A stretch of 64,000 nt of DNA from an uncultured Chloroflexia bacterium (lineage in GTDB: Bacteria > Chloroflexota > Limnocylindria > Limnocylindrales > CSP1-4), in NCBI GenBank assembly GCA_963837825.1, contig CAWIOR010000015.1:710235-774234 (forward strand), read 5' to 3'. Under the pieces are notes generated by a model. That model searched no databases, was not told the origin of the DNA, and worked only from the letters and a program-made list of their open reading frames with translations. Of this stretch, positions 1-47,500 are shown one piece after another. Within the stretch, counting starts at the first letter, position 1, and each line of letters starts with the position of its first letter. Made by a program: the position numbers and the translations under genes.

Positions 1-869
1 CGTTCGCCATCCCCCGGCCCGAGATCGCGATCTCGGGGGCGCTCCACGTCTCGTCCGGGTCGCCGTCCTCGTGGCTGGTCAGGTAGAACGCACCGTCGCC
101 GCGGCTGCTCCACAGGACGCCGACCCGACCCGGGCCGTAGGCCACGACTGGCGGCGACGTCGTCGGCGGTGACCAGGCTGCCGGGAGCCGGCAGGGCGAA
201 CGGCTGGCCCCAGAACAGGTCGTCGCCGGTCGGTCCGGTTGACCTTGACCTGGCCGTCGTCGGCGATGTAGGTCGTCCACAGCTTGCCGGTCGTGTCCTG
301 GGCCAAGACCATCGAGTCGACGCCGGCGTCGGTGATCCGGATCGGGAAGTTCGGGCTCGAGCGTGAAGGTCCGGGTCGTGGCGTCGAAGCTGTAGCGGAT
401 CAGGCGGGCCGCGCCGGATGCCGACTGTCGAGGGCGCGGCGCTGACGATGTAGAGGTGCTTGTCGCGGGCGTCCCACAGGCAGTCCGGCTGGGCGTTCGG
501 GCGCTCGTCGATGAGGGTGCCGGTGTCGCGCCAGGACTTCCCGCGGTCGACCAGCTCGTAGATGTGGTACGTCCGGCTGCGCGGCTCGAGCATCGCCGCC
601 CACCACGACCCCTCGGCGACCCACAGCTTGGACTGCGCACCGTGGCCGGTCGGCGACGATGGGCCGCCCGGTCCGACGACCTGGTCGAGGTAGGTGGCGG
701 CGACCGGCTCGGACGGCAGGGCCGGAGTCGGGCTCGGCCGGTTCGAGCTCGGGCTCGCGCTGGCGCCCGGCCCGCCCTGGGTCCCCGGCGTGGTCGCAGC
801 GGTCCAGACGATCGCGACGGTCAGGGCGGCGATCGCCCCGAGGCCGAGGAGCTTGATCCGGTTCGACAT
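1..869 (-). CDS. Secreted/membrane-anchored propeller-like protein, N-terminal part only (gene runs off the left edge); interrupted by frameshifts
   Basis: Minus-strand ATG at 869-867 preceded by GGAG. N-terminus MSNRIKLLGLGAIAALTVAIVW (signal/anchor), then SKLWVAEGSWWAAMLEPRSRTYHIYEL. Continuation lies in other frames (ORF 79..312: LAQDTTGKLWTTYIADDGQVKVN). Same motif order as the N-terminal domain of the 15575-18401 protein. Confidence 0.45.
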   Translation of the reverse strand, partial: MSNRIKLLGLGAIAALTVAIVWTAATTPGTQGGPGASASPSSNRPSPTPALPSEPVAATYLDQVVGPGGPSSPTGHGAQSKLWVAEGSWWAAMLEPRSRTYHIYELVDRGKSWRDTGTLIDERPNAQPDCLWDARDKHLYIVSAAPSTVGIRRGPPDPLQLRRHDPDLHARARTSRSGSPTPASTRWSWPRTRPASCGRPTSPTTARSRSTGPTGDDLFWGQPFALPAPGSLVTADDVAASRGLRPGSGRRPVEQPRRRCVLPDQPRGRRPGRDVERPRDRDLGPGDGE

Positions 870-1282: not shown

Positions 1283-2423
1283 ATGACCGAACGTTCCGCC
1301 GGCAGGACCGGCCGACTTCGACCTGCACGGCGCCGTCGGCATCCGCCTGACCGGTGCCACGCCGAGCGACCTGGCGGCGGTCCGCCGCCAGCTCGGGCCG
1401 ATCGAGCGGGCGCTGACCCGCCCGCCCGAGATCGAGATCGAGTACGTCGATCGGCTGCCGGCCGACGGTCCGCTCCGGTCGATCGGCCGCGACGACGCCG
1501 CGTTCGACCGGTCGACCTTCGTCATCCTGCGCGGGCGGTTCAAGGCGCCCGTCCGGGTGGCCGATCCCGCTCGACCGCGTCGGCGGCCCGTGCCGGATCG
1601 TGGCCGAGCGTGGGGTCGGGACGATCCCGCTCCTCGTCCCGATCGTCAACCTCACCGCGCTCGGACGAGGCCTCCTGCCGATCCACGCCTCGGCCTTCGT
1701 CCACGCCGGGCTGGGCGTGCTCGTCACCGGCTGGGCCAAGGGCGGCAAGAGCGAGGTCCTGCTGGCCTTCGCCGCGCGCGGTGCGTCGTACGTCGGCGAC
1801 GAGTGGGTCTACCTGGCCGACGACGGGAGCCGGATGGTCGGGCTGCCCGAGCCGATCCGGCTGTGGGACTGGCAGCTCCGGGCGATGCCCGAGTTCGCCG
1901 CCCGGCTGACGCGCGGCCAGCGCGCTCGGCTCGCCTCGACCCGGGCCCTCGGGGTCGGCGCTCGGAGGCGCGGCCGGGGCACCGGTCGTCCGTTCGACCG
2001 CCGGCGGCCGGACGCTCCGTCGCGCTGCGCCCGTACGTGGATCGGCAGCTCGACGTCCAGATCCCGCCGGCGCGGCTGTTCGGTGGCCGGGTCCTGGCCG
2101 ACGGCGCCCCGCTCGACCGGGTCGTCTTCGTCGAGAGCGCGACGATGAGCCGCGGATCACGGTCGAGCCGATCGACGGCGCCGAGATCGCCCGCCGGATG
2201 GTCCACTCGATCCGCCACGAGTGGCTCGACCTGTGGACCGCCTACCTCAAGTGGCGCTACGCCTTCCCCGAGCGGCCCAACCCGGTCCTCGAGGGGCTCG
2301 AGGCGACCCTTGGCCGAGCGCCTGGACCGGGCCCTCGCGGGCCGGCCCGCGGTCGCCCTCCGCCACCCCTACCCGCCGGACATCCCGGCGCTCGCGGATG
2401 CCCTGGCGCCCCACCTCGGCTGA
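1283..2423 (+). CDS. HprK-related (HPr kinase C-terminal domain-like) P-loop kinase, interrupted by several frameshifts
   Basis: Stitched: DLHGAVGIRLTGATPSDLAAVRRQLGPIE...FVILRGRFKAPVRV, then ORF 1600..2148 (LLPIHASAFVHAGLGVLVTGWAKGGKSEVLLAFAARGASYVGDEWVYL; HprK-type G-x4-GKSE loop), then pieces in ORFs 2198.. and 1557..2423 (HEWLDLWTAYLKWRYAFPE ... RHPYPPDIPALADALAPHLG stop). Confidence 0.5.
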
Positions 2424-2444
2424 CGGCGCCGGTTCGGTGCCGAG

Positions 2445-2582
2445 GGGCAACGGTTCTTCGCCGATCGGGCCATCCGGAGCCCGCCGAAGGTCCCATCAGC
2501 GCGGCCGAATCCGTACACTGGTCTCTCCGCGCCGCTCAGTCTCCAGTCCATCCGACGCGAGGGTCAGGGGGAACCGTTGCCC
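2445..2582 (+). other. 138-nt intergenic element closed by a perfect 12-bp inverted repeat (candidate structured RNA)
   Basis: GGGCAACGGTTC (2445-2456) and GAACCGTTGCCC (2571-2582) are exact reverse complements. Internal hairpins: CGGGC-N8-GCCCG (2466-2483) and GCGCGG-N22-CCGCGC (2499-2532). Lies in the only sizeable gap (2424-2633) of the operon. Confidence 0.35.
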
Positions 2583-2633
2583 ACCGACCGCGAGACGCTC
2601 GCACGTGCGCAGCCGCGGTCGCGACGCCGACCG

Positions 2634-3352
2634 ATGGTGACCGTCGCGCTCGTCGGGCCCGACGGCGCCGGCAAGTCGACCGTCGCCCGGCGGGTGGTGG
2701 CCGAGCTGCCGTTCCCGGCCCGACGCGTGTACATGGGCGTGAACCTCGAGGCCAGCTCGACGATGCTCCCGACCACCCGCCTGGCGCTGGCCGTGAAGCG
2801 CGCCCGCGGCGGTCGACCGGACATGACCGGCCGGACGGGCTGCGGGCCGGGCGATCCGGAGCCGGCGCCGACGCGGCCGGCTGGCCGGGCTGCGGGCCGA
2901 GCCTGCGGATGGCGAACTGGATCGCCGAGGAGTGGTACCGCCAGGCGATCGCGGCCGTCCACCAGCGACGCGGCCGGGTGGTCGTGTTCGACCGCCACTT
3001 CTTCTGCGACTACTATGCTCACGACGTGGTCGACCGCCCGGGACGATCGCTGGCCGGCCGGGTGCACGGGTTCAACCTTCGTCGGCTCTACCCGAGACCC
3101 GACCTGGTCGTCCTCCTCGACGCCCCGGCGGAGGTCCTCCACGCCCGGAAGGGCGAAGGCTCGATCGAGACGCTCGAGGCGCGCCGACAGGAGTACCTCG
3201 GGCAGGCCGGTCTGTTCCGGCGGTTCGTCGTCGTCGATGCCAGCCAGCCGACCGAGGCGGTCGTGGCCGCCGTCCGAGCCCGGATCGTGGAGTTCGTGCG
3301 CGGCGCCCCGGGGGTCCCGGCCGCGGCCGTCGTGCCTGGAGGTGGTCAGTGA
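2634..3352 (+). CDS. P-loop nucleoside/nucleotide-kinase-like protein (thymidylate-kinase fold), one or two frameshifts near 2830-2900
   Basis: ATG 2634: MVTVALVGPDGAGKSTVARRVV (Walker A) in the ORF 2577.. frame. C-terminal two thirds lie in the ORF 2198..3352 frame (NWIAEEWYRQAIAAVHQRRGRVVVFDRHFFCDYY...PDLVVLLDAPAEVLHARKGEGS). Stop TGA 3350-3352 overlaps the next gene's GTG (GTGA). Confidence 0.55.
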
Positions 3353-4314
3353 GGATCCTCGTCGCCAGCCCGATCGACCCCGACGCCCTCAGCCGGCTGC
3401 AGGCGGACAACGACGTGGCGGTCGCCTTCGGGGCGCCCGAGGACGAGCTCCGCCGGCTGGTGGTCGACCGGGAGGCGATCGTCTTCCGGAGCGGCGTCGC
3501 GATCAGCTCGGAGGTCCTGGCCGCCGGTACCGACCTCCGCCTCCTGGTCCGGGCCGGCTCGGGCCTCGACAACCTCGACGTCGCCCAGGTCCGGCGACGC
3601 GGGATCGAGCTCCGACGGATCCCGGGGCCTGGCGCCCAGGCCGTCGCCGAGCTGACCTTCGGGCACATGCTGAGCCTGGCTCGCGGGATCGCCCTCGGTG
3701 ACCGACTGCTCCGCCAGGGCCACTGGGCGAAGACCGAGCTGGTCGGCTACAACCTGACCGGCAAGACCCTCGGCATCGTCGGACTGGGCTCGATCGGCAG
3801 CCGGGTGGCGGCCCTTGGGATCGCCTGGGGGATGCACCCGGTCGGCTGCGTCGAGACGCCCAGTCCGCACCGGGTGGAGGAGTTCGCAGCCCACGGGATC
3901 GTGCTGACCGAGCTCGACGAGGTCCTCGCCGCGGCCGACTTCCTGACCATCCACGTCCCGCTCAACGACCGGACCCGGGGGCTGATCGGGCGTGCGGAGC
4001 TGGCCCGGCTCAAGCCGGGGGCGTTCGTCGTCAACGTCGCCCGGGGCGGGGTCGTCGACGAGGCTGCCCTGTACGACGAGCTCCAGCCCGGCGGCCGGGT
4101 CCGGGCGGCCGGCCTGGACGTCCATGTCAACGAGGGCGAGGGCAAGGTCTCGCCGCTGGCGAGCCTGCCCAACGTCGTTCTCACCCCTCACATCGGCGCG
4201 TCGACCGTCGACGCCCAGCGCGAGATCGGCCGGGAGGTCGTCGCGATCTTCGAGGGGTACCACCCGGCGAAGGAGGATCCGGCCATGGGCGATGCCATCG
4301 CCGAACGAGCATGA
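3349..4314 (+). CDS. D-isomer-specific 2-hydroxyacid dehydrogenase (SerA/PGDH-like); candidate phosphonopyruvate reductase
   Basis: Intact 321 aa. NAD-binding GKTLGIVGLGSIGSRVA. Catalytic-domain motifs FLTIHVPL, FVVNVARGGVVDE, VLTPHIGAST. GTG 3349 overlaps the upstream stop and its own stop overlaps the ATG of the PepM-like gene. Confidence 0.85.
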   Translation: MRILVASPIDPDALSRLQADNDVAVAFGAPEDELRRLVVDREAIVFRSGVAISSEVLAAGTDLRLLVRAGSGLDNLDVAQVRRRGIELRRIPGPGAQAVAELTFGHMLSLARGIALGDRLLRQGHWAKTELVGYNLTGKTLGIVGLGSIGSRVAALGIAWGMHPVGCVETPSPHRVEEFAAHGIVLTELDEVLAAADFLTIHVPLNDRTRGLIGRAELARLKPGAFVVNVARGGVVDEAALYDELQPGGRVRAAGLDVHVNEGEGKVSPLASLPNVVLTPHIGASTVDAQREIGREVVAIFEGYHPAKEDPAMGDAIAERA

Positions 4315-5207
4315 ACCGCGCAGATCGCAAGCGAGCAACGCTCCGCGCCGGGCTCGCCGAGCCGCGGGCGGTCGTGGCCGTCGGCGCCCACGATGCCCTC
4401 AGCGCGAAACTCATCGGCAAGTACGGGTTCGACGCGGTGTGGGTCAGCGGCTTCGGCGTGGCCACGATGGCCCATGCCCTGCCCGACCTCAACCTGACGA
4501 CGATGACCGAGGCCCTGGCCGCCGCGGTCCGGATCGACGGGGCCACCGAGTTGCCGGTCATCGCCGACGTCGACAACGGCTTCGGTGGCCTGGGCAACGT
4601 CGTCCGGACGCTCGTCGAGTACGAGCGGGCGGGGATCTCGGCGATCTCGGTCGAGGACAACCTGTTCCCGAAGCGGAACAGCCTGTACACCGGCGAGTCG
4701 AAGCGTGAGCTCATCCCGCGCGACGAGCAGGCCCGCCGGATCAGGGCGGCCAAGCGCTTCCAGGACGGCGACGGGTTCATGCTCATCGCCCGGGTCGAGA
4801 GCCTCATCGCCGGACACGGCGTCGAGGACGCCTGCGCACGGGCCGACGCCTACGTCGAGGCCGGCGCGGACGCGATCCTCATCCACTCGCGGGACAAGAC
4901 GCTGGCCGAGATCGAGGGCTTCCTCGGCGCCTGGAAGGGGCTGGGCTCCGTCCCGCTGGTGGCCGTCCCGACCCTCTTCCCGACGTTCACCTCGGAGCAG
5001 CTCTACGGCAAGGGCTTCAACCTGGTGATCCTGGCCAACCACCCGATGCGGGCGGCGGTCAAGGCGATGGAGGAGACCCTCGAGGGGCTCGCCCGGGCCG
5101 GTCGGGCCGCCGACGTCGACCCGACCATCGCGACCGTCGACCACGTCTTCGATCTGGTCGGCACCAAGGAGGCCATCGCCCTCGAGGACGAGGTCGGAGG
5201 CGGCTGA
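4311..5207 (+). CDS. pepM: Phosphoenolpyruvate mutase-like enzyme (ICL/PEP-mutase superfamily)
   Basis: Intact 298 aa. GAHDALSAKL..GFDAVWVSGF, PVIADVDNGFGG, and SVEDNLFPKRNSL, which matches the PepM-diagnostic ED(K)-x5-NS motif except K to N. Lacks the KRCGH loop of isocitrate/methylisocitrate lyases. Confidence 0.75.
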   Translation: MNRADRKRATLRAGLAEPRAVVAVGAHDALSAKLIGKYGFDAVWVSGFGVATMAHALPDLNLTTMTEALAAAVRIDGATELPVIADVDNGFGGLGNVVRTLVEYERAGISAISVEDNLFPKRNSLYTGESKRELIPRDEQARRIRAAKRFQDGDGFMLIARVESLIAGHGVEDACARADAYVEAGADAILIHSRDKTLAEIEGFLGAWKGLGSVPLVAVPTLFPTFTSEQLYGKGFNLVILANHPMRAAVKAMEETLEGLARAGRAADVDPTIATVDHVFDLVGTKEAIALEDEVGGG

Positions 5208-5213
5208 CGGTCG

Positions 5214-6480
5214 ATGGCCGAGCGTCCCGCGACGCCGCCGACCCATCCGGCGGTCGTCGTCGCCCTCGACTGCATCACCGGGCTGCAGACGGCCCGGATC
5301 CTGGCCGCCCGCGGCGTGCCGGTCTTCGGGGTGGCTGCGGACCGGCGTCACTTCTGCGCCCGGACCCGGGTCGTCCGGCGCGTCGTCGAGAGCCCGACCT
5401 CGGGCGACGCGCTGATCGCGACCCTCGAGCGGCTTGGCCCCCAGCTGGGGGATCCGGCGACCGGCGGGCCCGCGGTCCTCGTCCCGTGCTCGGATGCATC
5501 GGTCCTGGCGATCTCGGCCGGACGCGACCGCCTGGCGCCGTGGTTCCGGTTCGTCCTCCCCCCGCACGACGTCGTCGAGCTGCTGATGGACAAGATCCGG
5601 TTCACCGAGCATGCCCAGGCCCACGGCCTGGCGATCCCGACGACCCGGATCCTGCGCAGCCGGGCGGATGCCGAGGCCGCGGCCGTCGAGCTCGACTACC
5701 CGGCCGTCATGAAGCCCGGGCTGAAGACCGCCCGCTGGCAGGCGGCGACCAAGGCCAAGGTCTTCCGGGTCGAGGACGCGGCCGAGCTGTTGGCGACCTA
5801 CGACCGCTGCGCCGAGCTGGACCGATGTCCTCATCGCCCAGGAGTGGGTCGACGGCGGCGAGGCCGACCTCTACTCGTCGAACGTCTACTTCGACCGCGC
5901 CTCGCAGCCCGCAGGTCACGTTCATCGCCCGGAAGATCCGCCAGTGGCCGGTCGAGACCGGGACGAGCTGCCTCGGGCAGGAGGTCCGCAACGACGCCGT
6001 CCTCGACGAGTCGATCCGGCTGTTCGGGAGCGTCGCCTACCAGGGTCTCGGCTACCTCGAGATGAAGCGCGACGCGCGGACCGGCCGCCACTTCATCATC
6101 GAGCCGAACATCGGCCGGCCGACCGGACGCTCCCCGATCGCCGAGCGGGGCGGCGTCGAGCTGATCATGACCGCCTACCGCGACGCGCTCGGCGAGCCGC
6201 TCCCGACGGCCCGGGTCCAGCGCTACCGGGGCGTCAAGTGGATCTACTGGCGCCACGACCTGCAGGCCTCGATCGTGGCGGCCCGACACGGGCGCCTGTC
6301 GCTGCGCGGCTGGTGGCGGTCGGTCCGCGGCCCCAAGATCGAGGCGGTCGGCTCGTGGCGCGACCCGGTCCCGTTCCTGGTCGACGGCTGGCGGACGCTG
6401 ACCGCCGTCGGCGGCCGGCGCCGGCCGACGTGCGGTCCGCCCGACCGGCCGGGCCCGATCCCGTTCGCGGGGAGGCCTGA
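5214..6480 (+). CDS. ATP-grasp domain ligase (frameshifted near 5820 and 5910; 3' end uncertain)
   Basis: ORF 5214..6065: VVALDCITGLQTARILAARGVPVFGV...DKIRFTEHAQAHGLAIPTT...LDYPAVMKPG. Short middle piece in another frame (DVLIAQEWVDGGEADLYSSNVYF). ORF 5486..6595 frame: CLGQEVRNDAVLDESIRLFGSVAYQGLGYLEMKRDARTGRHFIIEPNIGRPTG. Confidence 0.6.
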
Positions 6481-7479
6481 GTGGCCGCGACCCGCGACGC
6501 GGCGGCAGCGGTCGCCGCCACGCCGGTCTTCGGCGGGATCGTCCGCGCCCTCGAGGCGGTCGACCGGGATCGGCCCGACATCCTGCCGGTCCTGACCTAC
6601 CACCGCGTCGCCGAGCCGGACGACGACCACTACCCGGGCCTGATCAGCGCCAGCCCCGACTGGGTTCGCCGAGCAGGTCGAGGCGCTCGGCCGGCGGTTC
6701 TCGTTCGTCGGGCTCGACCGGTCCTCGACCGCCAGGCCGGCGGGCGGCCGATCCCGCCCCGGTCGATCCTGCTGACCTTCGACGACGCCTACCGCGACTT
6801 CGCCGAGTCGGCCTGGCCGGTCCTCAGGGCTCGCGGGATCCCGGCCGTCCTGTTCGTGCCGACGGCCTTCCCGGACAGCGGCCTGCGCGTTCTGGTGGGA
6901 CCGGCTCTACGCGGCGCTCATCCGGACCGACGCGGACCGAACCGCTCGAGACCGCCGGCGGGGCCGCTCGCCATCGCCACCCGGGCCGACCGGGCTCGCG
7001 GCGTTCCGGACGCTCCGCGGGCAGCTCAAGCGGCTCGCCCACCCGGCGGCGATGGCCGAGGTCGACCGCCTGGTCGACGGGCTCGGCGGTCCCGCCGCTC
7101 GGGTCGTCCGTCCTCGGCTGGGACGAGCTGCGCCGGCTGGCCGCCGAGGGCGTCACGCTCGCCCCGCACTCGCGCGTCCATCCCCTGCTCGAGCGGGTCG
7201 ACCCGGCCGAGCTCGATGCCGAGATCGACGGCTCGCGGACGGACCTCGTGCGCGAGATCGGACTCGCCCCGGCGGCCTTCGCGTATCCCAGCGGGAGCCA
7301 CTCGGACGCCGTCGTCGCGCGGGTCCGAGGCGCTCGGGATCCAGGCGGCGTTCACGACGGTCCGCGGGGTGAACGACCTTCGCCGGGCGGATTGGCTGCG
7401 GCTCCGACGGATCAACGTCGGCGGTCGCTCGAGCCCGGCGCTCATCCGGGCGCAGGCCCTCGGCTGGCTGGCTCGCTGA
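6481..7479 (+). CDS. Polysaccharide deacetylase (NodB/CE4 family), several frameshifts
   Basis: ILPVLTYHRV, SILLTFDDAYRDFAESAWPVLRARGIPAVLFVPTAF, later pieces WDELRRLAAEGVTLAPHSRVHPLL (other frame), FAYPSGSHSD, GIQAAFTTVRGVN...RINVGG. Stop at 7477-7479. Confidence 0.65.
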   Translation: MAATRDAAAAVAATPVFGGIVRALEAVDRDRPDILPVLTYHRVAEPDDDHYPGLISASPDWVRRAGRGARPAVLVRRARPVLDRQAGGRPIPPRSILLTFDDAYRDFAESAWPVLRARGIPAVLFVPTAFPDSGLRVLVGPALRGAHPDRRGPNRSRPPAGPLAIATRADRARGVPDAPRAAQAARPPGGDGRGRPPGRRARRSRRSGRPSSAGTSCAGWPPRASRSPRTRASIPCSSGSTRPSSMPRSTARGRTSCARSDSPRRPSRIPAGATRTPSSRGSEALGIQAAFTTVRGVNDLRRADWLRLRRINVGGRSSPALIRAQALGWLAR

Positions 7480-7572: not shown

Positions 7573-9122
7573 GTGGAGCTCTCGGGCTACTTCGCGGTCG
7601 CGCGACGCTGGTGGTGGACGCTGCTCGTGGCCGCCTGGGTCGCCGGGCTCGCCGGTTTCTACGTCGCGAGCCGGATCGCAGCCGACCTACGAGTCGCAGG
7701 TCAAGCTGCTGGTCGGGCCGATCAACACCGACGCCGACACGCTGCGGGCGTCCGGCCAGCTGGTCCAGACCTACGCCCAGCTCGTGACGACGCGGATCGA
7801 TCCTCGAGCCGACGCTCGCGCGAGCTCGGCCTGACCGACAGATCTCGTCCGAGCGTGCTCGCGGCGAACACCCGGGTCACCGCCAACGACGTCACCCGGG
7901 TCCTGACGATCCGGGTCCAGGACGGCGAATCCGAGCGGGCGGCCGACCTGGCCAACGGGATGGCCGACCACGATGATCCAGATCTCGAGGAGCGGGGTCA
8001 ACCGTCCGGAGGGCGCCCTGTCCTATCATCCAGGAGGCGGTGCCGAACCCGAACCCGGTGGCGCCCGCAGGTCTCGCTGATCGTCCTCCTGGCGACGGCC
8101 GCGGGGATCCTCGCCGCGATCGTCCTCGTCCTCCTCATCGAGTACCTCAGCCGGAGCATCCGGACCCGCGAGGAGCTGGCCCGGCTGGCCGGCGCGCCCG
8201 TCCTCGGCTCGGTCCCCGCTCCGGCAGGGGGAACCCCGACCCGAAGCGACCTGGTCGACGAGGCGTCGTCCGCGGCGACCGTCTACCGGGTGCTCGCCGC
8301 CCGGATCGTCTACGGCGACCCGAGCGAGATCCTCCACAGCGTGGCCGTCGTCGACGCCGAGTCGGAGACCGGCGTCGGCGGTCGTCGCGATCAACCTCGG
8401 CCGGGCCCTGGCCCGGCTCGGGCGGCGGGTCGTCGTCATCGACGGCGGGAGCCGCGGCGAGCCTGGCCGCGCTGTACGGGGTCGAGCCGGCTCCCGGGCA
8501 TCCGCGACATCCTCGAGCCGCGAGGTCCAGCCGCGGTCGGCGATGCGGATGATCGGCGAGCGGCTCGCGCTCATCCCGGCCGGCTACGAGGGCGGCGACC
8601 TGATCGACCCCGAGCGGGCCGAGGCCGTCGTCCACGAGCTCCTCGCCTACGGCCGACGTGGTCATCGTCGCGACGCCACCCGTCCAGGCCGGTCCCGGCG
8701 GCCCTGTCGTGGGCCCGGGCGGTCGACGGACCGTCCTCGTCGCCCGCCGCGACCACGCCCGACGCGAGGACGTCGCGGCCGCCGCCGAGACCCTCGTCCA
8801 CGTCGGCGGCAGCCTCATCGGGACGATCCTCGCCGAGCGCCCGGCGCCGCTGGCCGGGCTGTTCGGTCGCGGTCGCTCGGGCTCGTCGCGGGCGCGTGTC
8901 GCCGTCCGCGCCGATGGCGAGCCCGATGGCGACGCCGATGGTCGAGCCGGTCGCGACCGCCACGCCGACGCCCGGCCCCGGACCGCGCCCAGCTCGTCCG
9001 CGACCGTCCGGCGGCGGGCCGTCGCCTACGACACCCGTCGTCGGCTCCGCCCGACGATCGTCCGGGCGAGTGCGCCGGCCGACGCCGGTCGAGCCGCCGA
9101 GGTGCCGCAGTCGCACCGGTGA
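7573..9122 (+). CDS. Polysaccharide co-polymerase (Wzz-type chain-length determinant) fused to a CapB/MinD-like P-loop ATPase domain; many frameshifts, 3' end uncertain
   Basis: GGAGGA-N6-GTG 7573. TM1 WWWTLLVAAWVAGLAGFYV. PTYESQVKLLVGP and VTANDVTRVLTIRVQD (Wzz-like). TM2 LIVLLATAAGILAAIVLVLLIEY. Then VVAINLGRALARLGRRVVVID...VVIVATPP...VLVARRD. No C-terminal tyrosine cluster seen. Confidence 0.55.
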
Positions 9123-9302: not shown

Positions 9303-10328
9303 GTGCGCGTCCTGGTCACGGGCGGAGCCGGCTACATCGGGTCGGAGACCGTCCGGCTGCTGGCCGCCCGGGGTCACGAGCCGGTCGTGCTCGACACGCT
9401 CGAGCGCGGCCATCGGGCCGCGCGTCGAGGCCGCGCCGCTCGTCGTCGGCTCGGTCGCCGACGGCGGCCTGGTCGAGGCGACGATCCGCGAGCACGGCGA
9501 TCGAGGCGCGTGATCCACTTCGCCGCCCTGAAGTCGGTCGAGGCGTCGTTCAGCGACCCGGCGGGCTACTTCGCGACGAACGTCGGCGGCTCGTTCGCCC
9601 TGCTCGGGGCGATGGCCCGGAGCGGGGTCCGACGGCTCGTCTACTCGTCGTCGTGCGCGGTCTACGGCACGCCGTCCGACCTGCCGGTCCGCGAGACGAG
9701 CGAGCTCCGCCCGGAGAACCCGTACGGCGAGACCAAGCTCCTCGTCGAGCGAGCCCTGCGCCTGGTTCGCCGGCGCCGGGTTCAGCGCGATCAGCCTGCG
9801 CTACTTCAACGCCGCCGGGGCCGCCTTCGACGGGCGCCACGGCGAGGACTGGACCGATGCCCCGAACCTCGTCCCGGTCGTCATCAAGGCGGCCCTCGGT
9901 CTCGGGCCGCCGGTCCGGATCCTCGGCTCCGACTATCCGACGCCCGACGGGACCGCGATCCGCGACTACATCCACGTGGCCGACCTGGCCGACGCCCACG
10001 TCGCTCGCCGTCGAGGCGCTGGCCGACGGCCTCGCGGGCACGGTCCTCAACCTCGGGACCGGGGTCGGCTCGTCGGTCCGCGAGGTGATCGATGCGGTCG
10101 GCCCGGATCGCGGGCGGACCGTGCCGACGATCGAGGCGCCGCGACGGGCCGGCGACCCGGCGGCGATCTGGGCGGACGCGTCGCCTCGCCGAGGCGGTCC
10201 TCGGCTGGCGGGCGAGCCACGGCCTCGACGCGATCGTCGAGACCGCCTGGCGCTGGCACTCGACCCACCCCGACGGCTACGGCCCGGAGTCGGCCGAGAC
10301 GCCGGTCGCCGTCGCGGAGCGGCGATGA
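9303..10328 (+). CDS. galE: UDP-glucose 4-epimerase (at least 5 frame changes)
   Basis: MRVLVTGGAGYIGSETVRLL; VIHFAALKSVEAS...VYSSSCAVYG...PENPYGETKL (YxxxK); SLRYFNAAGA...DYPTPDGTAIRDYIHVADLADAH; LNLGTGVGSSVREVI; final piece ORF 10092..10328. The stop overlaps the next ATG (ATGA). Confidence 0.75.
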
Positions 10329-11674
10329 GCGCCCTCGCCGTGGCGACCGGCCCGAGCCGCCCGTGGTCGGACGATCCGGCTACCGGCGGGCGACCGGCGC
10401 GCGACGCCGCCGCGCTCCGGGTCGCCTACGTCATGTCCCGGTTCCCGAAGCTGACCGAGACGTTCGTCCTGTTCGAGATGGCCGCCGTCGAGCGGCAGGG
10501 CGTCGAGATCCGGCTGTTCCCGCTGCTCCGCCAGCGCGAGGCGACGATGCACCCGGAGGCGGCGCCGTACGTCGCCCGGGCGACCTACCTGCCGTTCGTC
10601 TCGGGCGCCGATCCTGGCCAGCCAGTGGCACTTCCTCCGGCGGTCGCCGCGACGCTATCTCGGCACGCTCGGGGCGATGCTCGGCGGAACCTGGCGGAGC
10701 CCGAACTTCCTGCTCGGCGGGATCGGGATCTTCCCCAAGGTCGTCCACGCCGCGCGGCTGATGGAGCGCGACGGGGTCGAGCCACGTCCACTGCCACTTC
10801 GCCACCCATCCGGCCCTCGCCGGCTGGCATCATCCACCGCCTGGTCGGGATCCCGTACTCGTTCACGGCCCACGGCTCCGACCTCCACGTCGATCGGACG
10901 ATGCTCTGCCAGAAGGTCGCCGAGGCCGCGTTCACGGTCACGATCTCGGACGACAACCGGGCGGTCTTCGAGCGCGAGTGCGGCGGCCCGATCGGCACCC
11001 TCGAGGTGATCCACTGCGGGGTCGACACCGAGCGTCTTCCACCCGATCCCGCGGCGTCGCGGACGCCGCGGCTCCGCTGGCGATCCTGTCGATCGGCACG
11101 CTCCACGAGGTCAAGGGCCAGACCCATCTCGTCGAGGCCTGCCGCCGCCTGGCCGCCGAGGGCGTCCCGTTCCGCTGCCGGTTCGTCGGGGAGGGGCCGG
11201 ACCGGCCGGCGCTCGAGCGCCAGGTCGCCGCCGCGGGCCTGACCGACCGGGTCGAGTTCCTCGGCCGCCGGACCCGCGACGAGGTCGCCGCGCCTGATCG
11301 GCTCGAGCGACGTGCTCGTCGCGCCGAGCGTCCCGACCAGGGGCGGCAAGCGCGAGGGCATCCCGGTCGTGCTGATGGAGGCGATGAGCGCCGGGCTGCC
11401 GGTCGTCGCCAGCGCCCTGTCGGGGATCCCCGAGCTCGTCGTCGACGGCTCGTCCGGGCTGACCGTCCCGCCCGGCGACGCGGCCGCGATCGCCGCGGCG
11501 CTGCGCCGCCTCCACGACGATCCGGAGCTGCGGGTCCGCCTCGGCGTCGCCGCTCGCGAGCGGGTCCTGGCCGAGTTCGACGTGGACCGCAACGCGGCCC
11601 GGCTGGTCGAGCGGTTCGCGGCCGTCGCCGCGCAGGCGACCCGTCCGGGCCGCTGGCCGAGGCGAGCCCGATGA
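10325..11674 (+). CDS. Glycosyltransferase family 4 (WcaL-like), several frameshifts
   Basis: RVAYVMSRFPKLTETFVLFEM, HCHFATHPA, IPYSFTAHGSDLH, SIGTLHEVKGQTHLVEA, GKREGIPVVLMEAMSAGLPVVAS (E-x7-E), ORF 11312..11674 tail. Confidence 0.7.
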
Positions 11675-12928
11675 CCCGGCTCGCGTTCTGGCTGGCGCTC
11701 GGCGACGATCGCCTACACCTACGTCGGGTTCCCGCTGCTCGTGCTCGCCCGGGCGTCGCTCCGGCGGCGACCGGTGCGGTCCGCGCCGATCGAGCCGAGC
11801 GTCAGCGTCGTGATGGCGGCCAGGAACGAGGCGGCGGCGATCGCCGCCCGTCTGGACAACCTGCTCGCGCTCGACTACCCGGCCGACCGGCTCGAGACGA
11901 TCGTCGCCTCGGACGGATCGGACGACGCGACCGTGGAGATCGCCGCGGGCTACGCCGATCGCGGCGTCCGCGTGCTCGGCGCTCGATCGGGTCGGCAAGG
12001 CCGACGCGCTCAACGCCGCCGTCGCGCGCGGCCGACAGGCGAGATCGTCGTGTTCACCGACGCCAACTCGATGTTCGAGCCCGGGGCGCTTCGCGCGCTC
12101 GTGGCCCCGTTCGCCGATCCCGAGGTCGGTGGCGTGGCCGGCGACCAGCGCTACCTGCCGGCCGGCGGAGCCGACCCGGATGCCGCGCGGCGAACGGAGC
12201 TACTGGGACCTCGACCGGCGGGTCAAGCTGGCCGAGAGCGCAGCCGGGCAGCACGGTCTCGGCGACCGGCGCGATCTACGCCATCCGGCGCGAGCTGTTC
12301 GAGCCGGTCCGACCGGCGTGACCGACGACTTCATCACCTCGACGGCAGTCATCGCCCGCGGGCCGGCGGCTCGTGTTCGCGCCCGACGCCGTCGCCTGGG
12401 AGCCGGTCGCCGGGTCGAACCGGCTCGAGTACGGCCGGAAGGTCCGGATCATGACCCGCGGGCTGCGCGGCGTCGCCGCCACGACGGGCGCTCCTCGACC
12501 CGCGCCGGACCGGCTTCTACGCGGTCCAGCTCGCCTCGCACAAGATCCTCCGCCGGGTGATGGCGGTGCCGCTCCTGATCGTCGCCGCGCGGCGCGCCGC
12601 TGCTCTGGCCGCAGGGCGCGCTCTACCAGCTGACGACGCTCGGCGCGGCCGCGGCTGGCCGGCGCTCGGGGCCATCGGCCTGGCAGCGCCGCGGTCACGG
12701 CTCGGCCGCCAGCGGCCGGTCGGCCTGGCCGCGTTCTTCGTCCTCGTCAACGTGGCCTCGCTCCAGGCGATCTGCAACCTGCTGACCGGGCGGCGGATCG
12801 ACCGCTGGGAGCCGCGCCGCGACCGTGCGACGGCGACACGGACGGCTGCGGCCGGCGCGCCGCCGAAGCGGCGCCGGACGATCCCGGCCGCCGGTCCCGA
12901 GCCGATCGAGATCGGAGCCGGCCGATGA
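11671..12928 (+). CDS. Glycosyltransferase family 2 (membrane-bound, GT-A), several frameshifts
   Basis: VSVVMAARNEAAAIAARLDNLLALDYP, IVASDGSDD, VVFTDANSMFEP, VAGDQRY, ATGAIYAIRRELF, RKVRIMTRG, then C-terminal TM segments. ATGA overlaps at both ends. Confidence 0.7.
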
Positions 12929-14471
12929 GCGAGCGCAGCGTGATCGTCGGGCCGCCGACCGCCGGCCGTCGCGCCCGAGGCGCCAGGTCGACCCGCGCTT
13001 CCGGTGGCCGCCGGTCATCGTCACCGTCCTCGCGATCGTGGCTGCGCGGCCATCGGCGCGATCGGCGGCGGACCGCCCGGAGATCGCCATCGCCGGCCTC
13101 GTCGCCCTGCTCCTCGGGCTGGCCGCGCTGATCCGACCCGAGGTGGCGACCCTCGTCGTCATCTTCCTGCTCTACAGCAACGCCGCCGTCATCGCCGTGA
13201 CCCGGTTCGGGGCGCCGCGTCTTCGTCGGCGCGATCGTGCCGATGATCCTCGTCGTCCCGCTCGGCTACGAGCTGCTGATCAGGCGCCGGACCGATCATC
13301 ATCACCCCGGCCTTCCCGTGGATCGCGCTGTTCCTCCTCGTCCAGATCGTCGGCACGCTGTTCGCCCGCGACATGATCGCGGCCACCGACGAGCTGGTGA
13401 CGTTCCTGCTCGAGGGGATCGGGCTCTACCTCCTCGTGGTCAACGTCGTCCGGACCCCGTCGGCGATGCGCAACGCGGTCTGGACCCTGCTCGCCGTCGG
13501 GGCCTTCCTCGGCGGCCTGTCGGTGTTCCAGGCGGTCACCGGGACGTACTCGAACGACTACTTCGGGTTCGCCCAGTCCGACGCCACCAACGATCTCGGG
13601 GTCGCGGTCCAGGGCCTGACCCGCCTGGCCGGCCCGATCGGCGAGAAGAACCGCTACGCCCAGATCATGCTGATGCTCGTGCCGCTCGCCCTGTTCCAGG
13701 GCTGGAGCGAGCGACGGCGCATCCTGAAGCTGGCGGCGTTCCGGTCGCGATCCTGGTCTCGGGCGCCGTGATCCTGACGCTTCTCGCGCGGCGCGGCAGT
13801 CGGTTTCGCCCTCGTCATCGTGATCATGACTGCTCCTGCGCTACATCAAGCCGATCCAGCTGTTCGCCGTCCTCGTGCTGGCCGGCTCGCTGCTGATCGC
13901 CGTGCCCCAGTACGCCGATCGGTTGACCACGCTCGGCGCGATCGTCGACGCCGTGACCGGCGGCGACGCCTCGAACACCGCCGACAACTCGATCCTCAGC
14001 CGGGCGACCGAGAACCTCGCCGCGCTGAGCGTCTTTGCCGACCACCCGATCATCGGCGTCGGACCGGGCCAGTTCAGCTCGTACTACCGGCAGTACGCGG
14101 ACGACATCGCGATCAGCGTCAGGACCACCGATCGGCAGGCCCACAACCTCTACCTGGCGACCGCGGCCGACACCGGGATCCTCGGGCTCGTCTGCTTCCT
14201 GATGGTCCTGTTCACGACGCTCTGGGAGCTGGCCAAGGCGCGCCGCAAGTGGCTCGGCAGACGGACCGACCTGGCGAACATGGCGACCGCCTTCAGCCTG
14301 TCGGTCGTGACCTACATGGCGACCGGCATCTTCCTCCACCTGTCCTACGCCCGCTACTTCTGGCTGATCATGGCCCTCGCCGGCGGCGGCCGCCGATCGC
14401 CCTGCGCGAGCCGGACCCCGAGGATCGGCCGAGCCCGAGACCGCACCGGCAGGACGTCCGTAGCCGGGTGA
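12925..14471 (+). CDS. O-antigen ligase / Wzy-type polymerase-like polytopic membrane protein, several frameshifts
   Basis: Many TM segments across three frames (LVALLLGLAALIRPEVATLVVIFLLYSN, FLLEGIGLYLLVVNVV, WTLLAVGAFLGGLSVF, AQIMLMLVPLALF). Periplasmic-loop motif GVGPGQF...AHNLYL typical of Wzy_C/O-antigen ligase proteins. Confidence 0.6.
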
Positions 14472-14475: not shown

Positions 14476-15537
14476 ATGAGTCCTGGCCGCGTCCTGCGCC
14501 ACGGGCCGGGCCGGACCGCCTCCGGCTGGCGGTCGCCGCGCTCGGGATCGTCGTCGCTCGTCGCCGGCGTCGCCTGGCTCGCTGGTCGGTCAGCCGGGTC
14601 CCGGACACGGGTCCGCCCGGAGACGGATGGCCCGATCCCGTCGCCGGTCGCGCGGCACTGCCCCGCGTTCCGGCCACGTCTACGTCGTGGTGCTCGAGAA
14701 CCACTCGTATCGGCGACGTCGTCGGCGACCCGGCCGCGCCGTACCTCAACAGCCTGATCGCGCGGGGCGGTCTCGCGACCGCAGTGGTTCGGGATCGCCA
14801 GGCCGTCCCAGCCGAACTACCTGGCGCTGTTCGCCGGGGAGACGCTCAACGTCCAGGACAACCTCCACCACGACTTCCAGGAGCGGACGCTCGCCGACCA
14901 GCTCGAGGAGCAGGGCTGACCTGGCGGGTCTTCGCCGAGAACGTCCCGCTCGGGCTGCTACACCGGCGCGACCGCGAAGGACGGCCCGGACGGACCGGGC
15001 ACGTACGCCCGCAAGCACGCGCCGGCGATCTCGTTCCGCCAGATCAGCGGGAACCCGGCCCGCTGCGCCAACATCACCGACTTCAGCCACTTCGCGACCG
15101 GCGCGGCGAACTTCAACCTGATCGTCCCGAACCTGTGCCACGACATGCACGACTGTCCGGTCGCCGCCGGCGACGCCTTCCTGGCCGGGTTCATCCCGCG
15201 GATCATCGACGCGCCCGACTGGGGGCCGAACGACCTGCTCGTGGTCACGTTCGACGAGGGCCACACGGGTGACCAGCCATCGGCACGATCGTCGTCTCGG
15301 ACGCGTGCCCGCCGGGCTTCCGGTCAGTCCGTCCGGCACGACCACTACTCGCTGCTGCGGACGCTCGAGGCCAGCTGGGGCCTCGGCTGCCTCGGGAACG
15401 CCTGCACGGCCAACGACCTCGCCGAGTTCTTCTCGCCGGGCGGGCCCGCGGCCGTCGTCGTCACCGTCCCCGTCCCCCGAGCCCGCCGTTCAGGCGACGG
15501 CCCCGCCGCCCCGGGAATCGAACGGCGCGGCCCGTGA
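14476..15537 (+). CDS. Phosphoesterase-family protein (acid phosphatase / phospholipase C-like), frameshifted
   Basis: HVYVVVLENHSY, SQPNYLALFAG, RKHAPAISF, NFNLIVPNLCHDMHD, LLVVTFDEG, HYSLLRTLEASWGL spread over three frames. N-terminal signal-like segment. Confidence 0.55.
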
Positions 15538-29165: not shown

Positions 29166-29348
29166 CTCGGGTCTCCTGGCGGGGCGACGGGCGGGCGTCC
29201 CAGGCTGCGCACGGCAAGGTCGGGTCCATGATACGCGGCGGCCGAACCGCGCCCGTTCCGCCGGTCCCTGTATCCTGCCGGCGACCGGTCGGTCGCCGTC
29301 CGTGGGACGCAGCCCCGGGACCAGCCTGCCGCCGACGCGAGGGACGCC

Positions 29349-30176
29349 ATGGCTCGAACCGTCTCGACCCGGAAGCTCGGCGACGCGCTCCGGGTGAAGC
29401 CCGGCTCGAAGGTCCGACTGACGGAGTTCGACGCCGACCAGACGTTCGGGCACGACAAGGCCGGGGCGGTCGAGACCGCGGACGCGCTCGAGGCGCGCCT
29501 GACCTCGCTCCAGGAGCGCCTGTGGGCGGAGGCCAGGCACCCCGTCCTCATCGTCCTCCAGGGGATCGACGCGGCCGGCAAGGACGGCACGATCCGCCAT
29601 GTCATGGACGCCTTCAACCCGCAGGGCTGCAGCGTGGTCGGCTTCAAGGTCCCGACTTCGCTCGAGCTCGCCCACGACTACCTGTGGCGGGTCCATCCCA
29701 ACACTCCGGCGAAGGGGACGATCTCGATCTTCAACCGCTCCCACTACGAGGACGTCCTGGTCGTCCGGGTCCACGAGCTGGTCCCGGAGACGGTCTGGCG
29801 CCCGCGCTACCGACACATCAACGAGTGGGAGCGGATGCTGACCGACGAGGGCACCACGATCATCAAGTTCTTCCTGTGCATCGACCGGGACGAGCAGAGG
29901 CAGCGCCTCGAGGCCCGCCGGGACGACCCGACCAAGAGCTGGAAGTTCTCGAAGACCGACCTCGCCGAGCGGGCGCTCTGGGACCGGTACGTCGAGGCCT
30001 TCGAGGAGTGCCTCGAGCGGACGTCCACCAGCTACGCCCCGTGGTACCTGGTCCCGGCCAACCGGAAGTGGTTCCGCAACCTGGCCGTCTCCCGGATCGT
30101 GGCCGAGACGATCGAGGCGCTCGATCCGCAGTACCCGCCGCCGGAGCCCGGCAGCCAGGACCTCGTCGTCGAGTAG
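29349..30176 (+). CDS. Polyphosphate kinase 2 family (polyphosphate:nucleotide phosphotransferase)
   Basis: Intact 275 aa. [20 protein letters not shown] (Walker A), [42 protein letters not shown]. Confidence 0.85.
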
Positions 30177-31645: not shown

Positions 31646-33318
31646 CTAGCCCTTGCCGCCGAAGAGCGTCCCGAACACCCCGCGCAGGAGCGACTGGCCC
31701 GCCCGCGAGGTGACGACCCGACCACCGGTCCGGATGGCCGAGTCGATCGACCGCTGGCGAGCTCGGTCGGCCGCCTTGCGCTCCCGCTCCGCGGCGGCCT
31801 CGGCGCGCGCCTGGGCGCGGGCCTCGCGCTCGGCCGCTGCGCGCTGACGCTCGAGCTCCCGGGCCTGGCGCTCGATCTCGCGCTGCTGCTGGGCCGGGTT
31901 GAGCATGACCGGCGGCGGGACCGCATTCGGGTCCGCGCCGGCCCGCTCGGCGGCGACCTGCTTGGCCGCCACGATCCGGGCCGAGATGATCTCGTGGGCG
32001 CTCTCCCGGTCGACCGTCTGACCGTACTTCGCGGTCAGCTGGCTGGTCGCGATGCGACCCTGGAACTGGACCGGGTCGAGGGCGGCCATCAGCGAGTCGG
32101 GAGGCACCAGCCGGGTCGCGGCGAGCGGCGTCGGGACGCCGCGGGCCGACAGGACCGTGATCAGCGCCTCGCCGATCCCGAGCGACTGGATCGTCTCCTC
32201 CACGTCGTAGAACTCGGTGATCGGGAACGTCCGAACGGTCTTCTTGAGGTTGTCGGCGTCCTGCGGGGTGAACGCCCGCAGGGCGTGCTCGACCCGGTTC
32301 CCGAGCTGGGCGAGGACCGAGCTCGGGATGTCGGCCGGGGTCTGGGTCGCGAAGTAGACGCCGACCCCCTTCGAGCGGATGAGCCGGGCGGTCCGCTCGA
32401 CCTGCTCCATCAGCGCGTCCGACGCGTCGTCGAACAGGAGGTGCGCCTCGTCGAAGAAGAAGCACAGCTTCGGCTTCGGCAGGTCGCCCGCCTCGGGCAG
32501 GCTGTGGTAGAGCTGGGCGAGCATCCAGAGCATGAACGTGCTGAACAGGCGCGGCCGGTCCATGACGTCGGACAGCTCGAGGATGCTGATGACGCCGGCC
32601 CCGTCGGGCGTCGTCCGGAGCAGGTCGCCGACGTCGAACTCGGGCTCGCCGAAGAAGACGTCGGCGCCTTCCTGCTCGAGGGTCACGATCGAGCGCAGGA
32701 GGACCCCCAGCGAGGCGCTCGACATCCCGCCGTACTCGTCGAGGATCGGCTTGCCCGCGTCCGAGCCCAGGTAGCGCAGGGTCGTCGACAGGTCGGCCAG
32801 GTCGAGCAGCGGCAGCTCGTTGTCGTCGCAGTACTTGAAGACGAGGCTGAGGATCGACGTCTGGGTGTCGTTGAGGTCGAGGACCTTGCCCAGCAGGAGG
32901 GGCCCGAAGCTGTGGACCGTGGCCCGGACCTGGGCGCCGAGCTTCCCGCTGAGCGACAGGAACTCGACCGGGTGGCCGGCCGGCTCGAACGTCCAGGCCG
33001 AGGCTCGTGCAGCGCTCGACGAGCTTCGGGTTGGTGGCGTCGCCGGGGACGGCCAGGCCGGTCAGGTCGCCCTTGATGTCGGCCACGAAGCACGGGACGC
33101 CGGCCCTGGACAGCTCGCCGGCCATGACCTGGAGCGTCTTCGTCTTGCCGGTGCCGGTCGCCCCGGCGATGAGCCCGTGCCGGTTGAGCATCGACAGCCC
33201 GACCTGGACGCGGACGTCCGAGGCGACCTCCGTCGCCGAGCATCGGGCTGCCGAGGACGACGGTCGGCTCGCTCGCGGCGTAGCCGGTCGCCATCGCGTC
33301 GCGGAAGGCCTGGTCCAC
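31646..33318 (-). CDS. DUF853 / HerA-like P-loop ATPase (YjgR family), frameshifted in the N-terminal half
   Basis: AAGGAGG-N6-GTG at 33318. [43 protein letters not shown] (Walker A). Intact C-terminal 359 aa (ORF 31646..32725) with [13 protein letters not shown] (Walker B), [11 protein letters not shown], charged coiled-coil tail. Confidence 0.75.
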
Positions 33319-44119: not shown

Positions 44120-44193
44120 CGCGTCAGGCCCCTCCGTGGTGTCGTCCCTGTCGGTCCCGTCGACTGTCGGCGCTCCCGGGATCCTCCCGGCCC

Positions 44194-44233
44194 GAGAAAC
44201 GACAAGACCCCCGCCTCCCGGCGAGGGTCCCTT
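44194..44233 (-). terminator. Candidate attenuator terminator in the ilvB leader
   Basis: Minus strand: AAGGGACCCUCGCC-GGGA-GGCGGGGGUCUU (12 pairs including 3 G-U, GNRA loop) followed by GUCGUUUCUC. Lies 24 nt after the leader-ORF stop and about 75 nt before the ilvB ATG. Confidence 0.45.
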
Positions 44234-47494: not shown

Positions 47495-47500
47495 CGAGGC

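Follow-up and report, generated by a model that had tools for sequence, protein, structure and literature searches.

Phosphoenolpyruvate (PEP) mutase (PepM) makes phosphonopyruvate against an equilibrium that favours PEP by more than 500 to 1, and a 2-hydroxyacid dehydrogenase is one of the four known pulls on it (PMC8942020, PMC12871164). This dehydrogenase, of the VlpB type and of family PF02826 (PMC8942020), is accepted as a PepM driver and yields phosphonolactate (PMC8942020, PMC12871164). In the valinophos system of Streptomyces durhamensis (VlpA and VlpB), the route is independent of phosphonopyruvate decarboxylase (Ppd), a dehydrogenase of the 3-phosphoglycerate dehydrogenase (PGDH) family beside PepM is the thermodynamic pull, and an ATP-grasp enzyme is in the cluster. 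The canonical phosphonoglycan and phosphonolipid systems (Bacteroides fragilis PS-B, Treponema, Glycomyces/Stackebrandtia) combine PepM, Ppd and 2-aminoethylphosphonate (AEP) transaminase with cytidine monophosphate (CMP) activation by PntC/LicC. Here, we analysed a 64-kb stretch of DNA from an uncultured Chloroflexia bacterium (contig CAWIOR010000015.1), hereafter the window, in which a PepM-like gene directly follows a PGDH-like gene at the head of a surface-polysaccharide locus.

We propose that these genes belong to a decoration cassette that moves horizontally and lies here within a surface-polysaccharide locus of the Wzy type. The cassette would turn PEP into phosphonopyruvate and this into phosphonolactate, process the product by a thymidylate-kinase-like (Tmk-like) and an HprK/FomB-like kinase and by an ATP-grasp enzyme, and so supply a unit for attachment to the Wzy-type glycan. 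We give this reading a probability of roughly 0.6.

The genes were defined by frame analysis on G+C at third codon positions (GC3) and by tblastn with intact orthologous proteins, as raw open reading frame (ORF) lists are noisy at the window's G+C of ~74%. The gene order of an earlier note on this DNA, on the plus strand from an HprK-like kinase to a phosphoesterase ending at 15537, is borne out by tblastn and Pfam/NCBIfam profiles (Table 1), and so are its stop-start overlaps or gaps of at most 7 nt over 2634-7479 by direct reading of the junctions. A GTGA overlap at 3349 couples the P-loop kinase and dehydrogenase genes and an ATGA overlap at 4311 the dehydrogenase and PepM-like genes. A 6-nt gap before 5214 leads to the ATP-grasp gene, whose junction with the deacetylase gene is TGA-GTG (6478-6481). 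The HprK-like gene is separated from the P-loop kinase gene by 210 bp (2424-2633); it is present as claimed, but its homologous N-terminus is read in frame 3 from ~1290 and does not share the frame of the ATG at 1283, which brings the frame disruptions of this gene to at least 3-4.

More than 1,500 homologues of the PepM-like protein are found at E <= 1e-10, the best 120 of them with 74-96% identity. A scan of species-representative genomes gave 32 loci of its clade. They are hosted by uncultured Chloroflexia metagenome-assembled genomes (MAGs; 92-96% identical), by other Chloroflexota including Limnocylindria and Anaerolineales, and by Actinomycetota. The actinobacterial carriers comprise the cultured Geodermatophilaceae URHB0062, Blastococcus carthaginiensis BMG 814 and Geodermatophilus sp. 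LHW52908, and also Nocardioides MAGs. The co-occurrence with glycan genes that the earlier note wanted checked in related genomes is found on every long contig, and the cassette is syntenic in the 32 loci, which span two phyla.

The dehydrogenase gene lies directly upstream of the PepM-like gene in 30 of the 32 loci, and two CBM96 genes (~7 kb) stand between them in L027 and L029. The Tmk-like kinase and ATP-grasp genes are adjacent in nearly all loci, and the HprK-like gene, and generally Wzx, lies within 10 kb where the contig is long enough. Since the Tmk-like kinase, dehydrogenase and PepM-like genes persist in L027 and L029 without ATP-grasp or HprK genes, this trio is the invariant core. 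The genomic context is always that of an extracellular glycan: every long contig has Wzx, Wzz, Wzy, glycosyltransferase (GT) or carbohydrate-binding module (CBM) genes within 10 kb of the cassette. Wzx adjoins it in L001, L002, L014, L015, L018, L020, L024, L026, L028 and L030, and the deacetylase gene adjoins it in the Chloroflexota loci. The 14-gene locus is syntenic over its full extent between the window and L001 and L002, which carry extra Wzx, APH-like kinase and alginate-lyase-like genes, while in Blastococcus the core stands among Wzx, GT2, a Wzz-like protein, an APH-like kinase and two sulfotransferases.

Some loci have features of their own. In L020 (Blastococcus carthaginiensis) the sulfotransferase genes (6921-7844 and 12291-13184) bracket the cassette, so the same glycan may be both sulfated and, putatively, phosphonylated. 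In L027 (an unclassified 'UCB3' MAG; 3207-15630) and L029 (an Anaerolineales MAG) the CBM96 proteins that split the trio have 986 and 1218 residues. The trio is followed there by a DUF4956/VTC/CotH-kinase-beta-helix module, a sugar nucleoside triphosphate (NTP)-transferase and a GHMP kinase; neither an ATP-grasp nor an HprK gene occurs within 20 kb. A gene of the APH/phosphotransferase family (~360 residues) occurs in L001 (4194-5264, minus strand), L002 (4165-5256, minus strand), L014 and L020 (~640-1790, minus strand) and L024-L030; this third kinase-like gene is absent from the window and its closest relatives. A conserved secreted protein of no known family, 'unk629', flanks the cassette in most Chloroflexota loci and recurs in L001-L012, L015, L020, L021, L027, L029 and L031.

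The PepM-like protein matches PF13714 with 180 bits over residues 12-259 and aligns end-to-end with the PepM structures 5UNC and 1M1B. Among the family models PepM itself (TIGR02320) is the best at 252 bits, ahead of phosphonopyruvate hydrolase (PPH, 203) and PrpB (172). The clade keeps every one of the residues W44, S46, G47, D58, D85, D87, E114, K120, N122, S123, R159 and H190 (Mytilus numbering), and those from D58 onwards are present in the window protein and nine of nine clade members. We take these to be the catalytic and phosphoryl-holding residues of the structural and mutagenesis literature on Mytilus PepM. The gating loop is EDNLFPKRNS (window residues 115-124), and its EDN is invariant in 120 of the 120 nearest homologues. 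The clade is isolated, with at least 64% identity inside and at most 49% outside in an exhaustive search of 50%-identity representatives.

PPH (PalA of Variovorax; PDB 2DUA) has the same fold, scores 194 bits and has all metal and substrate ligands in common with the clade. Its loop is EDKTFPKDTS, with Thr in place of the Asn122 of PepM and the clade, and on this ground we rejected the identity of the clade with PPH. PPH is moreover catabolic and without pairing to biosynthetic glycan genes.

Loops without the Lys are not confined to this clade. About a quarter of the 150 nearest 50%-identity representatives have another residue at position 116. Some of these variants are fused to a MobA-like NTP-transferase (P0124, P0126, P0136, P0154 and P0163) and one to a thiamine diphosphate (ThDP) N-domain (P0130), partners that are hallmarks of true PepMs (Rice 2019). 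In P0168, a PepM with an EDQ...NS loop is fused to a D-2-hydroxyacid dehydrogenase in one polypeptide, and this domain aligns full-length with the window dehydrogenase (E = 2e-29). A second lineage with the identical EDNLFPKRNS loop, 30-35% identical to the window protein, is found in seven Streptomyces loci (L035-L041) and the Nocardioides MAG L033. In the seven Streptomyces loci the EDN domain is fused to a flavin mononucleotide (FMN)-dependent L-2-hydroxyacid dehydrogenase (682 residues), and Ppd/sulfopyruvate-decarboxylase alpha- and beta-like ORFs stand directly upstream in all seven and adjacent in L033. These partners of the non-Lys loops are hard to explain unless phosphonopyruvate is produced, so mutase activity is likely. 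We therefore consider the EDN-loop PepM-like enzyme a probable true mutase that turns PEP into phosphonopyruvate.

Several findings weigh against the proposal at this step. The K116N loop departs from the motif EDKX5NS, and the TIGR02320 score falls below the curated cutoff of 319.55. A neighbour-joining tree, made without support values and poorly resolved at its deep nodes, places the clade on a long stem outside the EDK..NS crown that holds the validated PepMs 1M1B and 5UNC. The Streptomyces beta subunit scores 120 bits as Ppd and nearly the same, 112 bits, as ComE (sulfopyruvate decarboxylase). The profile and phylogeny checks named in the earlier note thus came out divided, with PepM as the best family and the protein outside the hydrolase group on the one side, and the cutoff and the validated crown on the other. 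Because of the loop, the score and the position outside the crown, we infer mutase activity rather than regard it as established. The EDN loop was overlooked in the earlier reading and is both the main caveat and the main novelty.

The strongest alternative is that the EDN-loop protein is another member of the PEP-mutase/isocitrate-lyase superfamily, a lyase, hydrolase or decarboxylase acting on a 2-oxo or 2-hydroxy acid. The decoration would then be a C3 phosphate or carboxylate of phosphoglycerate, glycerate or lactate type, with 3-phosphoglycerate or hydroxypyruvate as the substrate of the PGDH-like enzyme and the phosphate supplied by the kinases. This would account for the failure of both the motif and the equivalog cutoff, and for N116, which is nearer to the Gln of lyases than to the Lys of PepM and PPH. 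It would also suit the basal or intermediate place of the clade in the tree beside EDN..CS and EDQ..CG sequences, a dehydrogenase closest to real PGDHs, and several kinases in one locus. However, the catalytic Cys of the lyases is absent, whereas the phosphoryl-holding Asn122-Ser123, present as in PepM where PPH has Thr-Ser, is invariant together with R159 and H190. The neighbours of the clade in the tree are uncharacterised EDN..NS, EDN..CS and EDx..SS groups, with the hydrolase group separate. As PepM is also the best-scoring family, and non-canonical loops co-occur or are fused with Ppd-like, PntC-like and 2-hydroxyacid dehydrogenase partners, we hold this alternative to be unlikely.

Among the proteins P0124-P0193, all from outside the window, PF13714 loops of the forms EDN..NS, EDN..CS, EDQ..NS and EDH..NS lie near the PepM radiation, and some are fused to NTP_transf_3, TPP_enzyme_N, AMP-binding or 2-Hacid_dh domains. 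The EDN..CS group has Cys for Asn122 and yet has PntC-like or Ppd-like fusion partners. The Streptomyces fusion gene belongs to ten conserved genes, being followed by a methyltransferase, a major facilitator superfamily (MFS) transporter, two nucleotidyltransferase-like proteins and mostly an amidohydrolase. One example of this candidate phosphonate cluster is L038 of Streptomyces nogalater JCM 4799 (7640-18122).

The dehydrogenase has the PGDH model TIGR01327 as its best match (266 bits, below the cutoff of 454), and its best PDB relatives are the PGDHs 1WWK, 1YGY and 2G76. That it is SerA-like and translationally coupled to PepM, as had been suggested, agrees with this profile, the ATGA overlap and the adjacency across the loci. 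It keeps the R-S and R-A-G positions, presumably the substrate-phosphate anchors of PGDH. Phosphohydroxypyruvate, the keto-acid substrate of PGDH, differs from phosphonopyruvate solely by the bridging oxygen. Hence, we propose that the dehydrogenase is a phosphonopyruvate reductase.

The two kinases belong to different folds. The AlphaFold2 (AF2) model of a Tmk-like orthologue (pLDDT 83) has only thymidylate kinases among its top 50 Foldseek PDB matches (TM 0.5-0.6). The HprK-like protein is ~365-390 residues long when intact, and FomB matches occur in nine of ten orthologues (best E = 1.5e-6), with FomB as the top match for the proteins of the two cultured actinobacteria. FomA and FomB, the fosfomycin kinases, phosphorylate a phosphonate sequentially with ATP to the mono- and diphosphate. 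The cassette HprK-like kinase matches FomB about as well as HPr kinase, and its partner has a nucleoside monophosphate (NMP)-kinase fold, while FomA is of the amino-acid-kinase family and not Tmk-like. FomA and FomB also serve self-resistance, not glycan decoration.

The ATP-grasp protein is named a carboxylate-amine ligase or 'D-aspartate ligase' by its sources. Its AF2 model (pLDDT 84.7) has three domains, and its Foldseek matches are only generic ATP-grasp enzymes (biotin carboxylase, Ddl, PurK), none of them both characterised and closely related. For both this and the HprK-like protein, sequence searches of the PDB gave generic superfamily matches only.

The usual partners of PepM are missing. 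The earlier note had held Ppd to be absent, and tblastn with the Streptomyces Ppd-like alpha and beta queries indeed finds none, either across the 64-kb window or in the 32 loci, so Ppd is not a conserved partner of the orthologous loci either. A tblastn search with the acetolactate synthase IlvB as the probe also gave no Ppd match, but it was uninformative and was replaced by the Ppd-like probes. The ThDP enzyme at 42212-44509 on the minus strand, the only one in the window, was considered as a hidden Ppd and rejected as this ilvB acetolactate synthase (TIGR00118, 705 bits). AEP transaminase and LicC/PntC, likewise said to be absent, do not occur in the Pfam annotations of the syntenic L001 and L002 within 10 kb on each side; this negative covers the locus genes, each orthologous to L001/L002 genes, and the rest of the window was scanned non-exhaustively.

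A valinophos-type route had been suggested, and only its first part stands, namely PepM with an adjacent 2-Hacid_dh dehydrogenase and an ATP-grasp enzyme. The glycolysis-like kinase and reductase steps do not, as the Pfam families of the L002 orthologues include no PGK-, GAPDH- or aldehyde-dehydrogenase/reductase-like gene at the locus. All genes of the window locus have L002 orthologues, and these are of the Hpr_kinase_C, Thymidylate_kin, ATP-grasp, deacetylase and glycan-assembly families only. Since the kinases are Tmk-like and HprK/FomB-like and no reductase of the aldehyde-dehydrogenase type is present, the product probably stays at the oxidation level of phosphonolactate.

The proposed pathway would thus run as follows. 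The EDN-loop enzyme would isomerise PEP to phosphonopyruvate with the good probability argued above. Given this step, the coupled PGDH-type dehydrogenase would likely reduce phosphonopyruvate to 3-phosphonolactate with NAD(P)H, and this reduction would pull the unfavourable mutase equilibrium in place of Ppd. The Tmk-like and HprK/FomB-like kinases could next give a phosphono-(di)phosphate or phosphorylate the C3 unit otherwise, a speculative step whose exact form is doubtful, and this would be an activation without the usual CMP/PntC route. The Tmk-like kinase is proposed to act on the phosphonate because its class phosphorylates a phosph(on)ate oxygen. Also speculatively, the ATP-grasp enzyme would activate the carboxylate and join the unit to an amine or hydroxyl, and a plausible acceptor in Chloroflexota is an amino sugar that the neighbouring NodB deacetylase would expose. 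The outcome would be a C3 hydroxy-phosphonate substituent on the exported glycan.

The later steps have adverse points of the same kind. The FomB match spans only ~70 residues around the P-loop and is far below the cutoff. Some loci (L027, L029 and L032) lack the ATP-grasp and HprK genes, the deacetylase is absent from the actinobacterial loci, and no transferase for a phosphonate ester was identified. The likeness to VlpA and VlpB rests on published descriptions, not on sequence comparison. The locus had been called Wzx/Wzy-type, of which the Wzy_C, Wzz, GT4 and GT2 orthologues at 7573-14420 hold, but tblastn with orthologues finds no Wzx homologue anywhere in the window. The closest relatives L007-L012 have none within 10 kb of the cassette either.

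A second alternative is that the cassette makes a soluble phosphonate akin to valinophos or the phosphonoalamides, with the ATP-grasp enzyme ligating an amino acid and the polysaccharide genes as mere neighbours. PepM, a VlpB-like dehydrogenase and an ATP-grasp enzyme together follow the logic of the phosphonopeptide and valinophos pathways, and the cassette moves between different glycan-locus backgrounds. Nevertheless, it comes with no exporter, resistance gene or NRPS-like (nonribosomal peptide synthetase-like) gene, and the downstream enzymes of valinophos are absent. Its genes overlap or nearly abut on the same strand within the glycan loci of two phyla, with the Wzx, Wzz, Wzy, GT or CBM genes close by on every long contig. 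The ATP-grasp enzyme is assigned to COG3919 ('D-aspartate-ligase-like'), a group in which the named member modifies a precursor of the cell wall. A soluble product is accordingly improbable, and the glycan decoration remains the preferred outcome.

The sequence of the locus is itself uneven. By tblastn with intact orthologues, the reading frame changes 16 times within genes from 1311 to 14420, namely in the HprK-like, P-loop kinase, ATP-grasp, Wzz, epimerase, GT2 and Wzy genes, while the dehydrogenase, PepM-like, deacetylase and GT4 genes keep a single frame. The earlier note had set the intact dehydrogenase and PepM-like genes against their frameshifted neighbours. Both genes are intact and the frameshifts are real, but the contrast is meaningless, as the deacetylase and GT4 genes also keep one frame and a clean 2.9-kb stretch is expected by chance (p = 0.29; spacing simulation with 16 events in 13.1 kb).

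When the window is segmented by a Viterbi model of codon-position G+C, the frame switches every 100-700 nt in the first ~42 kb, and segments as long as normal genes appear only in the last ~22 kb. So skewed a density points to a consensus whose quality varies along the window, perhaps through differing coverage, strain heterogeneity or incomplete polishing, and not to a uniform error. The indels were characterised against L008; with its DNA only 87% identical, some apparent 'indels' in divergent stretches stem from the alignment itself. Most are insertions of one base in the window, outside homopolymers, and none falls within 2900-5808. The sister long-read soil MAG loci carry independent frameshifts, one of them inside the dehydrogenase of L009, while the cassette is intact in L010, L012, short-read MAGs and the cultured isolates. 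From the window-wide density, the sister-locus frameshifts, the indel profile and the chance value, the frameshifts are most likely consensus errors of the long-read assembly, not biology. That the locus is instead a truly decaying pseudogene cluster, where selection keeps only the dehydrogenase and PepM-like genes, would fit 16 frame changes around a stretch that is clean also against L008, but is very improbable with the same switch density well beyond the locus, intact relatives, error-like insertions and the considerable chance of such a stretch.

The phosphoesterase fragment lies at the distal edge of the locus, and its membership in the system is uncertain. Outside the locus, the window was annotated coarsely. 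It has a cyclic di-GMP (c-di-GMP)-I riboswitch aptamer at 46735-46815 on the minus strand (RF01051, 47 bits, above the gathering score), just past the 3' end of an alginate-lyase-like ORF (44941-46467, plus strand); a minus-strand gene under its control is not obvious. This ORF is homologous to the lyase-like genes that flank the cassette in L001 and L002. ARAGORN calls a tRNA-Arg(GCG) of 96 nt at 61202-61297 (plus strand) inside a long high-GC3 ORF (60370-62247), and no tRNA reaches the Rfam gathering score in the window, so the call is probably a false positive. The ilvD ORF (55457-58489) has an N-terminal extension of ~470 residues in its stop-to-stop frame.

Table 1. Features of the cassette, the glycan locus and the remainder of the window
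Feature	Position	Strand	Support and state
Conserved secreted protein 'unk629', family unknown	2..776	-	tblastn with L002 protein, 33% identity; no Pfam match
HprK/FomB-superfamily P-loop kinase	1283..2423	+	Hpr_kinase_C, HprK_rel_B and FomB matches; at least 3 frame changes
Thymidylate-kinase-like (NMP-kinase fold) P-loop kinase	2634..3352	+	Thymidylate_kin, TIGR00041; one frameshift at ~2852-2900
D-2-hydroxyacid dehydrogenase of the short (type III) 3-phosphoglycerate dehydrogenase kind	3349..4314	+	PF02826, PF00389; intact
PEP-mutase-like enzyme	4311..5207	+	PF13714; intact
ATP-grasp carboxylate-amine-ligase-like enzyme, COG3919	5214..~6480	+	tblastn frame map and indels against L008; frame changes at ~5809, ~5909 and probably ~6436
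NodB-family polysaccharide deacetylase	6481..7479	+	PF01522; one tblastn high-scoring segment pair (HSP) over 6550-7455, single frame
Wzz/PCP-type chain-length regulator with P-loop domain	7573..8840	+	tblastn to L002 Wzz in three frames; frameshifted; Pfam Wzz on orthologues
NAD-dependent sugar epimerase, GalE-like	9303..10298	+	tblastn, four frame segments; Pfam Epimerase on orthologues
GT4 glycosyltransferase	10421..11620	+	tblastn single HSP, 47% identity, single frame; Glyco_transf_4 and Glycos_transf_1 on orthologues
GT2 glycosyltransferase	11699..12814	+	tblastn, 3-4 frame segments; frameshifted; Glycos_transf_2 on orthologues
Wzy_C (O-antigen-ligase/polymerase-like) membrane protein	13020..14420	+	tblastn; frameshifted; Pfam Wzy_C on orthologues
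Phosphoesterase-family fragment	14920..15537	+	PF04185, E = 7.8e-8, profile positions 201-292 of 356 only
Polyphosphate kinase 2	29232..30176	+	
HerA-like ATPase	31646..33061	-	
Branched-chain amino-acid block (ilvB, aconitase-family/LeuC-like protein, IlvD)	42212..58489		

Phosphonates, from which antibiotics and herbicides come, form a significant organic phosphorus pool, and the estimates of their producers rest on one exact PepM motif. Three surveys keep only those PF13714 proteins that have an exact EDKX5NS and class all others as non-Ppm (PMC6697681, PMC8942020, PMC12723261), and a 2026 preprint hand-checked its candidate PepMs for 'the correct sequence motif' (PMC12871164). As its loop has EDN and not EDK, the present clade is unlisted in such motif-filtered inventories, and the Streptomyces ten-gene cluster would fail the same filter for the same reason. 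Full-text literature searches show no account of the cassette, as the earlier note had supposed, and no report of phosphonolactate on glycans or of phosphonate biosynthesis in the cultured hosts.

Should the EDN-loop enzymes prove to be true mutases, the motif filter systematically undercounts the biosynthesis of carbon-phosphorus (C-P) compounds, especially in soil Chloroflexota and Actinomycetota. The phosphonolactate branch, known from one Streptomyces small-molecule pathway only, would also feed cell-surface glycans, and there would be a nucleotide-free activation of phosphonates for glycan attachment. We advance more tentatively the wider claim that soil Chloroflexota and Actinomycetota make unrecognised phosphonolactyl exopolysaccharides by an EDN-loop mutase with kinase and ATP-grasp activation, not by the 'predominant' CMP/PntC route, and that EDKX5NS is too strict and misses a sizeable C-P fraction. 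The cultured carriers, Blastococcus carthaginiensis, Geodermatophilaceae URHB0062 and Geodermatophilus sp. LHW52908, make the idea directly testable.

Singly, a dehydrogenase-driven PepM, phosphonoglycans and ATP-grasp tailoring are already known. What is new, so far as the predicted functions hold, is the loop variant, the glycan setting of the phosphonolactate branch and the kinase-based processing in place of CMP activation. Compared with valinophos, the cassette PepM has EDN and not EDK, the kinases are Tmk-like and HprK/FomB-like, and no downstream homologues towards 2,3-dihydroxypropylphosphonate are present. Valinophos is moreover the product of a small-molecule biosynthetic gene cluster, whereas the cassette resides in Wzy-type glycan loci of Chloroflexota and Actinomycetota.

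The cassette is like the canonical phosphonoglycan systems in that a PepM-family enzyme lies in a surface-glycan locus with a presumed phosphonate decoration of the exported polymer. Those systems use C2 units (AEP, 2-hydroxyethylphosphonate (HEP) or methylphosphonate), whereas the unit here would be C3 and derived from phosphonolactate. And where they have CMP activation, the cassette has two kinases and an ATP-grasp enzyme.

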